A DNA stretch of 32,000 nucleotides from an uncultured Clostridia bacterium (GCA_944382845.1 CALWNN010000025.1:16300-48299), one strand, 5' to 3'; counted from the stretch's first letter, positions 27,516 through 32,000 are shown. The notes: generated by a model from the letters alone, not told the origin. A program made the numbers and translations.

Positions 27516-27762
27516 AAAGAAAAAACTTATGCAGCGGGTAAGAACACTTGGTTTTTCTCTTGTTGAAGCCGAACTTTTTCTTGACAGTCATCCCGCTTGT
27601 AAGGAAGCAATCGAGTATTATGAAAAGCAGCTTGAAAAGTACAGGGAAGCAGTTGCGGAATACGAAAAGAAATATGCGCCGATTACCACACACAGCGGAG
27701 TTGTAAACGGAAGATGGGCATGGGCTGAATGTCCTTGGCCATGGGAAAGGAGTGAAAACTGA
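27505..27762 (+). CDS. cotJB: Spore coat protein CotJB
   Basis: 85 aa. FSLVEAELFLDSHPACKEAIEYYEK...YAPIT...CPWPWE matches the CotJB family pattern. It overlaps cotJA by 11 nt. Confidence 0.85.
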   Translation: MADEKKKLMQRVRTLGFSLVEAELFLDSHPACKEAIEYYEKQLEKYREAVAEYEKKYAPITTHSGVVNGRWAWAECPWPWERSEN

Positions 27763-28013
27763 TGTGGAGTTACGAAAAGAGATTACAGTATCCGGTAAAT
27801 ATTAAAAATCCGAACCCTGCTGCGGCAAAAATAATTATCAGCCAACTTGGCGGCCCAGATGGGGAAATGGCAGCGTCAATGCGCTATCTGAATCAGCGTT
27901 ACACTGCGCCGTGCAGGGAGGTTCAGGGACTTTTGAATGATATAGGTACAGAAGCCCCTGAAATGTTCCTTTCAGGGGCTAACGCTTTTTTTGACGCTTT
28001 TGCAACCGTATAG
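27762..28013 (+). pseudogene. cotJC: cotJC (Mn-catalase-like spore coat protein), 5' fragment only; family similarity ends at about 27953
   Basis: MWSYEKRLQYPVNIKNPNPAAAKIIISQLGGPDGEMAASMRYLNQRYTAPCREVQGLLNDIGTE is a normal CotJC start with an ATGA overlap onto cotJB. After codon 64 the frame reads APEMFLSGANAFFDAFATV*, which is antisense to the recombinase gene. Confidence 0.8.
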
Positions 28014-29590
28014 CTCCATTTCATAGGAAGCAAGTTCAGATATACATCTATGTTATCCTTATCGTTGACCACCATCTTATCTAATATGTGCTTATAAAAC
28101 TCATCATCGTATTCCACGCCGCCGACAATTTCATTTATGGCATCGCTGATTTCCCGAACAAGCTCCTGTTGCTGCCTAATCATAGTTTGCTGCTTGTCGA
28201 AACTGTCGATAACGGATTGAAGCTCCTTGATTTCATTATCACACTTTGACCGTGCCGCACTAAATTCTTCTTTGGTTATATCTCCAGACATATAAATATC
28301 AATGAGCTTTGTACGCTTATCCTCAATAGTTTGGATTTGCGCTTTCAGTTTTTCGACATCTGTTCCTGTGGTATCCATTGCGATTATAGATTGAATAATA
28401 GAAATAAGATTTTTTATGATTTTCGTCTGCTTGAGTTTCAATTCCTTTGTTACGAGGAATATAATATGTGTCGCATCTTCATTGCGAATGCTTGCACCTG
28501 TGCAGCCGACTTGGTTTCCTGCCTTATCAATGTGAGGACTGCCGTGCTTGGCGGCTTCATTACATCGCCAAGCCTTATAACGACTGCCGTCTTTTCTTGT
28601 TTTATACCTTGCCACATAGCTTGAACCGCAGCACCCGCATTTGATTTTACCAGAGAATGGATAGCGATTGCTGTGTTTTGCCTTGCCTTCTTGTGAAAGC
28701 GAACGCTCGTCTAAAATGCAGTTTGCTTCTTCAAACAGCTCACGGGATATAATCGGCTCGTGGTGGTCTTTGATAATCACAAATTCCTCCTGACCTCGAT
28801 TGTATTTCTTTTCGTGGGAGAGGAAATCTGGCGTATAGGTTTTTTTCTGCACCAAATCACCGCAGTATTTTTCATTTCGGATAATACGTAGAATGACTGT
28901 ATTCTGCCATTCTTTCACACGCATAGGTCTGATACCTTCTTCACGAAGCTCACGAGCGATGACGTGCGTTCCTTTGCCCTCATTTACAAACTTGTGAAAA
29001 ATAAGGCGTACAATTTTTGCTCCTTCTTCATTGATAGTCATTTTACCGTTTTCAACATCGTAACCGAGCATACTTCTGCCGAACACAACGCCTTGCTCCA
29101 TCTGACGTTTCTGTCCCCACTTTACACGCTCGGAAGTCTTGCGGCTTTCTTCCTGTGCAATCGAGGACATTATCGCAAGTCGAAGCTCTGCATCGCCGTC
29201 TAAAGTGTTGATATTGTCGTTCATAAAGATAACGCCAACACCATGTTTTTTGAGGTCACGGGTATAATATATGCTATCGAGAGTATTTCTCGCAAAACGG
29301 GAAATCTCTTTCGTAATAATCAAGTCAAAATCGCCGTTTTTGGCGCAGGCTATCATTCGATTGAACTCTTTGCGCTTTTTCGTGTTTGTACCAGATATTC
29401 CTTCATCGGCAAAAATCTCATACAGCTCCCAATCTGGATTACGCTCAATATATTGTTTGAAATAACGCTGCTGACTTTCAAATGAATTGGCTTGGTCTTC
29501 ATTATCCGTGGAAACACGGCAATACGCAGCTACACGCTTTCTGGTATCTATCATTTTTCGCTCTTCGTTTAAGCGCTCATACTTGTTCAT
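27923..29590 (-). CDS. Large serine recombinase (resolvase/invertase N-terminal domain, recombinase domain, zinc ribbon, coiled coil)
   Basis: 555 aa. AAYCRVSTDNEDQANSFESQ holds the catalytic Ser. The Cys cluster is KCGCCGSSYVARYKTRKDGSRYKAWRCNEAAKHG. The C-terminal part has coiled-coil character. AAGGAG RBS. The last roughly 10 codons and the stop lie left of the junction, in cotJC DNA. Confidence 0.9.
   Translation of the reverse strand: MNKYERLNEERKMIDTRKRVAAYCRVSTDNEDQANSFESQQRYFKQYIERNPDWELYEIFADEGISGTNTKKRKEFNRMIACAKNGDFDLIITKEISRFARNTLDSIYYTRDLKKHGVGVIFMNDNINTLDGDAELRLAIMSSIAQEESRKTSERVKWGQKRQMEQGVVFGRSMLGYDVENGKMTINEEGAKIVRLIFHKFVNEGKGTHVIARELREEGIRPMRVKEWQNTVILRIIRNEKYCGDLVQKKTYTPDFLSHEKKYNRGQEEFVIIKDHHEPIISRELFEEANCILDERSLSQEGKAKHSNRYPFSGKIKCGCCGSSYVARYKTRKDGSRYKAWRCNEAAKHGSPHIDKAGNQVGCTGASIRNEDATHIIFLVTKELKLKQTKIIKNLISIIQSIIAMDTTGTDVEKLKAQIQTIEDKRTKLIDIYMSGDITKEEFSAARSKCDNEIKELQSVIDSFDKQQTMIRQQQELVREISDAINEIVGGVEYDDEFYKHILDKMVVNDKDNIDVYLNLLPMKWSYTVAKASKKALAPERNISGASVPISFKSP
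27954..27979. repeat. Perfect 10-bp inverted repeat at the cotJC/element junction (candidate att half-sites)
   Basis: GCCCCTGAAA (27954-27963), TGTTCC spacer, TTTCAGGGGC (27970-27979). It begins at the first base after CotJC similarity ends. Confidence 0.9.
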
Positions 29591-29695
29591 AGAAAAACTC
29601 CTTTCTCAGCAAACTTTGTTTACTGTACTTTATTATAGAAAAATCGCTGAGAAGTGTCGAATGTGCAAATCTTCAATTCCCAAACTTTGATATGT

Positions 29696-29734
29696 AAAAA
29701 CGCCAAGCAGTCAAGCTCGGCGTTCATTTTTTTT
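29696..29734. terminator. Bidirectional hairpin terminator upstream of the recombinase gene
   Basis: AAAAACGCCAAG-CAGTCAAG-CTCGGCGTTCATTTTTTTT: an 8-bp stem with one mismatch, an A-run on one side and a T-run on the other. Confidence 0.5.
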
Positions 29735-29979
29735 GACTTTGCTTGTATTGATTTTCGAGTATAGTCAAACAGCGTTCACGCTGAGAGCCCGTAAGCAATT
29801 TCCTTTTTTCGAGAGAAAAAAGAATTGACTTCTGAACATTTAATAAAAATTTTGCGTGTTCCTGTTCGTTTAATTGTGGGACGGGGTCGCCAATATATAC
29901 AAACTCTCTGTGTTTCAGCCGTCAACACCTCCCTCGTTCTCAATATATGAGCCATTGCTTGTACCGTATAACAAGAGGG

Positions 29980-31073: not shown

Positions 31074-31573
31074 GTTGACACCTCATTCCTTACCGCCGCT
31101 TCCACTTCATTTTCAGTAACAAATATAATGCGATAGCTTTGAAAGCTCATATTTTTCGCATTTCGTTCTACAAGTAAGCGGAAGATTTTCTGTTCTTCGG
31201 GAGAAATATCTCCATATCCAATTATAACTGCCTTTTTAGGGACTACATTGCGTTGAACATGGTGTGTTTCTCCATGTAACAAACGAATAAACGCTTGTTG
31301 CACTGGAATACTTCGCTCAAGCATGGTTTTCATTATTGTATCATAACCGCCATATTTGATTCTACTTACATATAAAATTCTATCACTTGCTGCGATTTGC
31401 GGATAAACTTTAATTGCATCATCGCGTATTACACATTTCCCCGGGGTCTTTGTCCAGCAGCCAAAGCATCCAACGCAGTTCGTAATATTCAATTTGGTTA
31501 AATCAATAAATTGTATAGTTGGATGATGGTCTTTGAAGACATCTAAATTTCTATCGCTCAACACCAAATTCAT
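31061..31573 (-). CDS. Flavodoxin-family protein with a compact C-x2-C-x2-C-x7-C motif (iron-sulfur flavoprotein-like)
   Basis: 170 aa. NCVGCFGCWTKTPGKCVIRDD resembles the Isf-type Fe-S cysteine motif. The N-terminus lacks the usual GS.R FMN loop, so the assignment is tentative. Confidence 0.5.
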   Translation of the reverse strand: MNLVLSDRNLDVFKDHHPTIQFIDLTKLNITNCVGCFGCWTKTPGKCVIRDDAIKVYPQIAASDRILYVSRIKYGGYDTIMKTMLERSIPVQQAFIRLLHGETHHVQRNVVPKKAVIIGYGDISPEEQKIFRLLVERNAKNMSFQSYRIIFVTENEVEAAVRNEVSTWEK

Positions 31574-31606
31574 TTTGTTCTCCTTGTTTTTATCTCTATT
31601 TTTATT

Positions 31607-31634
31607 ATTATAATATATTTATTATAATATATTT
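31607..31634. repeat. Exact 14-nt tandem duplication in the flavoprotein operon promoter region
   Basis: ATTATAATATATTT occurs twice back to back (31607-31620 and 31621-31634). Each copy carries a TATAAT box on the minus strand. Confidence 0.85.
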
Positions 31635-31796
31635 TGGCGGATTTTAAAATAGAAAGCAAAAAATTTTATCTGTAAATAAATCCCGTTTTATAAAAATTCC
31701 GCATGTAGATTTACAAGGAATAACGGGTGTCAGCCATAACAGGGAAAGTATAGCATTCCCTGTGATGATTGGAAGCACCCGCAAGTGTGCTGGCAA

Positions 31797-32000
31797 TCAT
31801 GCTTTTTTCGTAACCACCTCCTTTCCGAACTGCTCATAAGCTGCGGCAACCTTACCGCTTTTGTCATAAGCAAAAATGCTCTTGCCTTCTGCGGTAGCTT
31901 CCACCGCACGGATAGAATGCGGTATCTCCGTATCAAACACCTTGATTTTTTGACCGTAGTCACTTTTTACCGTTGCCGTGATTTCCTTAGAAATGTTGGT
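31797..32000 (-). CDS. ParA/Soj-family partition ATPase, C-terminal 67 codons; the gene runs off the right edge
   Basis: Reverse translation gives ...KIKVFDTEIPHSIRAVEATAEGKSIFAYDKSGKVAAAYEQFGKEVVTKKA*. This matches the ParA C-terminal pattern (F.T.IP.S.....A...G.SI..YD...K.A.AY....KEV). It is not in the ORF track because it has no start in the window. Confidence 0.7.
   Translation of the reverse strand, partial: TNISKEITATVKSDYGQKIKVFDTEIPHSIRAVEATAEGKSIFAYDKSGKVAAAYEQFGKEVVTKKA

Follow-up and report, generated by a model that had tools for sequence, protein, structure and literature searches.

The locus analysed here is most closely matched by sporulation genes that are split by DNA elements carrying a large serine recombinase (LSR). 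In the skin element of sigK, for which the recombinase is SpoIVCA in B. subtilis and CD1231, together with the directionality factor CD1234, in C. difficile, the recombinase gene lies at the element's edge, the two halves of the split gene are collinear, and excision restores the gene precisely. Skin elements have in many cases decayed, and apart from the recombinase they have little in common. The same logic of a split sporulation gene applies to SPbeta in spsM (SprA, SprB), vfbin in spoVFB, vrin in spoVR, gin in gerE, and yin in yabG, and sporulation-specific excision has been shown experimentally for systems of this type. The spore coat gene cotJC has also been named as a target. Kohm et al., citing Abe et al. 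(2013), place cotJC among the sporulation genes used for integration by phages and transposons, and Galperin et al. (2022) mention a skin-like element in cotJC of Laceyella sacchari; such cases involve the same gene and a recombinase-bearing element in other taxa (Bacilli, Thermoactinomycetaceae). Here we describe a stretch of 32,000 nucleotides from an uncultured Clostridia bacterium (GCA_944382845.1 CALWNN010000025.1:16300-48299; hereafter the window), in which cotJC is interrupted by an element with an LSR.

An original prediction, made from the sequence of the window, had proposed a possible sporulation-gene intervening element and had left open whether cotJC had been reported as such a target. 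The papers above answer this in the affirmative for in silico evidence. As a target, cotJC is already known in silico, and the literature search found no description of the gut-Clostridia family of elements treated here, of its exact site in the DIGTEE codons, or of its attP. The same search found no experimental demonstration of cotJC excision. The window element resembles the skin elements in the position of its recombinase, the collinear gene halves, the predicted precise restoration, and its decay, and it resembles gin in being small and not a prophage. Unlike skin, it lies in cotJC and carries a recombinase of the conjugative transposon (CTn) type, no directionality factor or sporulation promoter has been found in it, and its excision is predicted from sequence, in contrast to the SPbeta/spsM-type systems.

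The insertion point is the GG of cotJC codon 62, within the conserved metal-binding stretch ...DIGTEELAH.... The 5' part of cotJC in the window (27762–27946, plus strand; a Mn_catalase match) consists of codons 1–61 and this GG. The called cotJC open reading frame (ORF) runs from 27762 to 28013 and past 27946 reads into element DNA. Upstream, cotJA (27264–27515, plus strand; Pfam CotJA, E = 1.9e-18) and cotJB (27505–27762, plus strand; Pfam CotJB, E = 7.7e-26) are intact. The cotJA ORF overlaps the cotJB ORF and the cotJB stop overlaps the cotJC start, in agreement with the original description of two intact genes coupled to cotJC. The cotJABC operon has been assigned by homology; a weak sigma-E/K-like −10 element upstream of cotJA is at chance level. 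CotJC had been read as normal up to codon 64 (27953). The Pfam Mn_catalase match is indeed confined to residues 1–64 (profile positions 1–65 of 284), but the junction is the GG at 27945–27946, and codons 63 and 64 (TE) derive from the element arm TACAGAAG, which mimics cotJC. Intact orthologues read ...GTEELAHLEM at this place and do not continue with APEMFLSG-like sequence, which the original prediction had named as a finding that would refute it.

The 3' part of cotJC lies outside the window, as had been stated, and has been found ~6 kb past the window edge in L018, a 162-kb metagenome contig of the same species that is identical to the window at 184 of 185 nt over the cotJC 5' part. A protein search with CotJC residues 1–64 led to this contig through two proteins of the same species, P0122 and P0123, whose tails diverge just past the junction; P0123 is encoded on L018. 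The contig spans the entire element and both junctions, and the cotJC 3' part is oriented as the 5' part. The order from the left is cotJA, cotJB, cotJC 5' part, junction, an insertion sequence (IS) with a DDE transposase, the LSR gene, and PemK and ParB remnants, followed on the right by two FMN-reductase-like genes, parA, a 59-residue ORF, a split AbiEi gene, a 68-residue ORF, the second junction, and the cotJC 3' part. The element measures ~7.8 kb with the IS, as in L018, and ~6.4 kb without it. When attL and attR are joined in silico at the GG, a CotJC of 199 amino acids (aa) results with no extra bases. Alignment of this protein with eight intact orthologues needs no gap through ...DIGTEELAHLEM... 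and on to the C-terminus; both halves are free of stops and frameshifts, and each conserved block has its counterpart in the intact orthologues. The original prediction had asked for a cotJC 3' part and a second half-site, and had named a missing 3' part, as the sign of a deletion, and unrelated half-sites as findings against it. A collinear 3' part and an attR with the same GG core are both present in L018, and the cotJC of the window species is, judged from these alignments, split by an insertion and not by a deletion. We hold it to be highly probable that the locus is an LSR island in the attB of its family, from which cotJC could be restored.

The attachment sites define the crossover. In the window, attL occupies 27922–27969 (plus strand), with a B arm at 27922–27944, the GG at 27945–27946, and a P-type arm at 27947–27969, and reads ...TTTTGAATGATATA-GG-TACAGAAGCCCCTGAAATGTTCC.... 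The attR of L018 reads ...GGAGCATTTCCGTTGCTTCTGTA-GG-TACAGAGGAACTTGCTCAT.... An attP has been seen directly in contig L100, which holds a related element with an LSR 88% identical to that of the window, and reads GGAACATTTCAGAGGCTTCTCTA-CC-TACAAGAGCCTCGGAAATGTTCC; there the recombinase ORF crosses attP and is followed by AbiEi, the gene also present at the far end of the L018 element. The arms of this attP are near-perfect inverted copies with the CC at the symmetry centre, which is the usual anatomy of a serine-integrase attP (~50 bp, imperfect inverted arms, 2-bp crossover). The three sites align in register around GG/CC, the cores of attL and attR are in direct orientation without target-site duplication, and the likeness between the window and the recombinase end found in another species (L004) begins exactly at 27947. 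The central position of the CC in the symmetrical attP and the agreement of all junctions place the crossover in the window at the GG at 27945–27946.

Two other interpretations of the sites have been rejected. A TA crossover, whose palindromic core would fit both orientations of insertion, was ruled out by the attP symmetry centre and by the position of all junctions at GG/CC. The right-hand arm in L018 had been considered as the remnant of a second recombinase gene in a composite element, and was ruled out as such since L100 shows it to be a normal attP P' arm. The junctions predicted after excision are ...TTTTGAATGATATAGGTACAGAGGAACTTGCTCAT... for attB and ...CATTTCCGTTGCTTCTGTAGGTACAGAAGCCCCTGAAATG... 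for attP. A 20-mer of the attP proximal arms, searched for as a sign of the excised circle, matched JGI metagenome contigs once, by chance, and IMG/VR not at all, in a scan that did not extend to the attB junction.

The LSR gene (27923–29590, minus strand; 555 aa) has Pfam matches to Resolvase (6.8e-33), Recombinase (1.2e-24), and Zn_ribbon_recom (9.8e-11). Its ORF is convergent with cotJC, crosses an inverted repeat next to the junction, and stops in antisense cotJC DNA, and the ORF map and Pfam matches reproduce the originally described 555-aa recombinase that crosses the palindrome and ends at 27923. The share of cotJC in this gene had been put at about ten codons and the stop; it is seven codons (PISFKSP) and the stop. 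The best solved relative is PDB 3G13, a C. difficile "putative conjugative transposon recombinase", with ~55% identity over the catalytic domain (E = 3.3e-46), to which the motif YCRVSTD of the LSR aligns. SprA of SPbeta is distant (E = 2e-14). A phage origin was considered and rejected, as no phage record exceeds 48% identity. By these affinities, the LSR is of the conjugative-transposon type. Homologues at ≥85% identity number thousands. The LSR is 98–99% identical to 19 clusters drawn from other genomes, and versions this close occupy larger islands in other species. The alternative already raised in the original prediction, an integrative element in cotJC, gains from both the CTn-type relative and these near-identical copies. 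A sigma-70/sigma-A-like promoter (TCGACA-17-TATAAT; 29632–29660, minus strand; 11 of 12 positions, by consensus match only) lies ~40 bp upstream of the LSR start.

As attP lies within the LSR gene, the protein encoded after excision is longer, with 590 aa in L100 (2140–2346) and 74 additional residues in the virtual circle of L018 (17792–18016). An ORF of 68 aa corresponding to the extra C-terminus occurs in 162 protein clusters. Integrase genes that contain attP are known from the myxophage Mx8 (intP) and the Sulfolobus virus SSV1 (int), both of which encode tyrosine recombinases. As in these genes, integration changes the 3' end of the LSR gene and gives two C-termini, and the LSR tail is without protein-level constraint, with a ratio of non-synonymous to synonymous substitution rates (dN/dS) of 0.3–2. 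A role of the exchanged tail as a functional domain is unsupported by this range, which rests on small numbers. The dN/dS of the LSR within the species (for example, 16 synonymous versus 0 non-synonymous changes) was likewise dropped as a sign of purifying selection, as the variable sites fall in two recombination tracts.

Comparison with related elements places cotJC at the centre of the family's target range. The C-terminal tails of abundant LSR relatives resemble the antisense translation of the cotJC 5' part of various species (P0065, with 3,125 members, P0074, P0020, P0021, and P0023), and right-junction proteins read ..ASSSV-P-REASEM, which is the antisense cotJC 3' part joined to the P' arm. 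Based on these tails and right-junction proteins, cotJC is the principal attB of the family. LSRs of 93–94% identity fused to unrelated host genes point to further targets. Related elements occur in attP, attL, and attR configurations across different samples, which is an indirect sign of recombination activity.

The family has also inserted in the opposite orientation. In the 19 clusters of 98–99% identical LSRs, the recombinase frame continues into the sense strand of the cotJC 3' part, giving ORFs of ~697 aa of the "Resolvase plus Mn_catalase" kind, and a left junction for this orientation exists (P0360). Both orientations adjoin the same host polysaccharide genes, with LSR plus cotJC 3' part in L004–L007 versus P' arm plus antisense cotJC 3' part in L104–L108. 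A flipped-core attP variant, which is needed for both orientations with a GG/CC core, was not found. The split cotJC fragments and the 697-aa "recombinase plus Mn-catalase" ORFs are best regarded as junction products and not as new proteins. The family would also serve as a case from nature of insertion whose orientation depends on the 2-bp core alone. Its attP/attB pair is fully defined and the attB highly conserved across many Clostridia, which makes cotJC useful as a natural landing site in engineering these bacteria.

The full-size relatives are known from their two ends. At the recombinase end they carry PemK, a sigma-70 region-4 protein, GntR, ABC transporters, and a two-component system; AbiEi/AbiEii, a methyltransferase, and an SMC-like ATPase occupy the opposite end. 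This cargo (ABC transporters, two-component system, sigma factor, toxin-antitoxin) is typical of the conjugative and mobilisable transposons of Clostridia, such as the CTn family of 3G13 and Tn4451 with its recombinase TnpX, and the ~55% identity of the LSR to 3G13 is a further likeness. Unlike such transposons, the window copy is without conjugation or mobilisation genes, and its site is internal to a gene, with a 2-bp core and long inverted arms.

How common the split state is has been estimated from one genome per species, using the 80 loci most similar to the N-terminus of the window CotJC, two of which run off contigs and leave 78 evaluable. Within this set, cotJC is intact in 62 species representatives and broken at codons 62–69 in 11 of 78; two further loci are broken near codon 136 (L037, L093) and one has a frameshift (L079). 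An earlier view that the whole clade is split, taken from a 64-aa query whose 120 best protein matches were all truncated, has been withdrawn, as the species survey shows most to be intact; the ranking of the word-indexed protein search favours short proteins and many distinct junction variants. In L087 (10001–14144) cotJC is intact, and 1.6 kb further on a recombinase of 43% identity is joined to a different cotJC 3' fragment, which may be a second split copy or a copy borne on the element.

At least four unrelated element arms are found at this hot spot, and the recombinases are 26–84% identical to the window LSR; the arm types probably stem from several recombinase families. The nearest sister lineages are also split at the same spot by other arms (P0124, P0125/L110). 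In L110, from a sister species with the same neighbouring genes, the break falls on the same GG, and the arm that adjoins it is another one, TGTATCTGTATCGGAATATGACA. Among the other breaks (L025, L030, L056, L060, L070, L090, L091, L110, L037, L093), one group follows ...GTEE(L/Y/C)xH. The second break point, near codon 136, follows ..EDMAAD, and a distant recombinase adjoins it in L093. In L111 (1–10387), the last of the siphovirus-like structural genes (capsid, tape measure, Dit, Gp37-like) stops 80 bp short of a cotJC fragment without its first 8 codons. An aberrant core (TC) links this fragment to the island P' arm, and two elements may have cut cotJC in this genome. In the complete genome of Sellimonas catena JCM 35622 (L045, 10190–11800), 1.6 kb lie between the cotJC halves with a truncated serine recombinase inside, and the insert appears to be a dead-end remnant. 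The same insert contains a 111-aa ORF that, judged by eye from its sequence, resembles a Spo0A C-terminal domain.

The copy in the window species has lost most of the cargo seen in its relatives and is, by comparison with them, a remnant that deletions have left of a family of larger islands in gut Clostridia. Relative to the full-size islands, AbiEi is in two pieces, AbiEii and the SMC-like gene are deleted, and ParB and PemK are truncated. The LSR gene together with the adjacent upstream stretch, up to the deletion point, is 96% identical to an island in another species. At that point lies a chimeric 98-aa remnant (29980–30276, minus strand) with a ParB_N N-terminus and a PemK C-terminus, in which the Pfam ParB_N match covers positions 2–44 only and falls below the curated cut-off. 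The chimera was made by a 2.26-kb deletion, as seen against strain L008, that joins ParB_N to the last 27 codons of the PemK toxin gene. ParB-like and then ParA-like genes had originally been described in this region; parA is present, but the "ParB-like" gene is this chimera, and two overlapping FMN-reductase/flavodoxin-like cargo genes (30471–31573, minus strand; 200 and 170 aa; weak Pfam FMN_red hits) lie between. The FMN-reductase-like pair is found in L008 and L018 and not in L001. The 3' part of parA (31797–32000, minus strand) stays open as far as the window edge, and its translation matches the ParA of L018 (263–287 aa) exactly.

Indels and IS insertions vary between strains. In L018 an IS with a DDE_Tnp_1 transposase (10273–11673) sits 35 bp from the core, just past a hairpin, and replaces the last LSR codons. 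In L019 foreign DNA occupies the same place, from ~10210 onward, and the sequence diverges just past the att arm. No genes for conjugation or mobilisation (relaxase, coupling protein, type IV secretion) were recognised among the ORFs of the 7.8-kb L018 element.

On the reading that we prefer, an LSR family would dock at its attB in cotJC by means of an LSR gene that runs through its own attP with a CC core, and integration would leave the LSR gene convergent with cotJC and ending in antisense cotJC. A single LSR-mediated exchange of attL with attR would then remove the island as a circle and restore the 199-aa cotJC. We infer that the LSR is active. In vegetative cells, as in the genome that is passed on, cotJC is most likely simply interrupted, and any excision would follow the vegetative-type expression of the element itself and not the sporulation programme. 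Taken whole, the proposal of a resident island in its usual site, excisable, decayed, and not programmed has, in our judgement, slightly better than an even chance of being correct. Several observations weigh against it. The insertion is present in all 21 contigs of the species, assembled from seven or more sample sets, and an empty site was not seen; the species occurs in metagenomes such as ERZ21549445, ERZ16268082, the ONAT22-1 and BRZ sets, and SRR25052240-42. The 21 contigs are 18 contigs with identical CotJB, all of which share the split cotJC, two with an identical CotJC 5' part (those of P0122 and P0123), and L002. The protein collection contains no intact CotJC with the N-terminus of the window protein. 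This distribution agrees better with a fixed and perhaps domesticated element than with a freely moving one. Most of the cargo has been lost, yet attL, attR, both parts of cotJC, cotJA, and cotJB have stayed intact; all contigs that span the LSR ORF have it complete apart from L018, where the IS cuts its last codons, and even that IS spares the att arm. Since the 6–8-kb element has no conjugation gene, selection for mobility gives no obvious reason to keep the LSR.

Much of this speaks for a domesticated, skin-like element that is kept in the forespore genome and excised by the LSR only in the mother cell, which would restore cotJC there. The cotJ operon is expressed in the mother cell in Bacillus, both gene halves are collinear and intact so that excision restores the ORF precisely, the element occupies the site in every contig, and the LSR and att sites persist as the cargo decays. 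The splitting of the closest sister lineages at the same spot by different arms, the convergence of several arm types on cotJC, and the earlier naming of cotJC as an integration target (by Kohm et al. with reference to Abe et al. 2013, and for Laceyella sacchari) point the same way. The original prediction had suggested looking in the element for a directionality-factor gene and for sigma-E/K promoters, and neither was recognised. Small element ORFs gave no Pfam hit, a weak test for a directionality factor as such factors share no common family, and sigma-E/K-like motifs do not exceed the numbers seen after shuffling, again a weak test with motifs this short. The LSR promoter is sigma-A-like. 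In known systems, however, the recombinase may be expressed outside sporulation and a small directionality factor carries the sporulation promoter, and because the sporulation promoter may sit on such a factor, the sigma-A-like promoter is not decisive against a skin-like element. The 96% identity of the LSR and its upstream stretch to islands of other species leaves no host-specific rewiring visible, the polymorphism of the LSR within the species in two recombination tracts gives no evidence of selection in place, and the last LSR codons are replaced by the IS in L018. CotJC-type catalases of C. difficile are dispensable for coat formation and their loss causes mild defects, so restoration may be unneeded. 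On balance, we consider programmed excision at this locus less likely than not, though a serious possibility. If the LSR is instead inactive on these sites, cotJC would be permanently inactivated and the spores would be made without CotJC or with a paralogue. Such a dead end agrees with the heavy deletion of the element and its differences between strains, the IS in the LSR 3' end in L018 and the second insertion at the same place in L019, the truncated recombinase within cotJC of Sellimonas catena, which is such a case, and the frameshifted or truncated cotJC in L079, L037, and L093. It is made improbable by the cotJC halves without stop or frameshift, the intact cotJA and cotJB, the intact att arms, and an LSR ORF that is complete in nearly all spanning contigs and 98–99% identical in amino acid sequence to its relatives. 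An assembly artefact, or a deletion that mimics an insertion, could be invoked because contigs often break inside the element. The same junction has been assembled independently in the 21 contigs and is therefore no assembly accident; one 162-kb contig spans both junctions and a related element holds the matching attP, which renders this explanation extremely improbable.

A broader extension, rated as rather unlikely, is that programmed excision of CTn-type islands from cotJC is common in gut Oscillospiraceae and Lachnospiraceae, with a switch of the LSR C-terminus in place of a directionality factor. The basis of this idea is that about 1 in 7 species has a split cotJC and that the integrated and excised states encode different LSR C-termini. 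If excision were tied to sporulation, cotJC would be added to the genes rearranged in development, among them sigK, spsM, spoVFB, spoVR, gerE, and yabG. It would then be a case with a CTn-type recombinase, widespread in uncultured gut spore-formers, whose spores govern transmission between hosts.

The remaining features of the window are as follows. The perfect 10-bp inverted repeat GCCCCTGAAA-n6-TTTCAGGGGC (27954–27979), with which the break had been said to coincide, is confirmed, but the junction lies outside it, at 27945–27946. With one further pair, the repeat folds at −19.2 kcal/mol (z = −3.3), and 0 of 200 shuffles fold as well. The resulting hairpin, with an 11-bp stem and a run of seven T (27953–27990, plus strand; terminator scan and fold energy), is terminator-like on the cotJC strand and lies antisense within the recombinase 3' coding region (residues SKKALAPERNISGA). 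Relatives have retained it, L100 with a C>T / G>A pair that is compensatory, and it looks like an intrinsic terminator for transcripts leaving cotJC. A 59-aa ORF of doubtful coding status (29776–29955, minus strand; no Pfam hit) lies between the PemK remnant and the LSR gene; it is found upstream of the recombinase in all relatives, with 90% aa identity in L004 and 46% in L086, the complete genome of Lachnospiraceae bacterium JLR.KK009. Finally, two tRNA-Ser genes (TGA, 4444–4534; GCT, 4593–4682; both plus strand) are present in the window, and these are ordinary and unrelated to the element.

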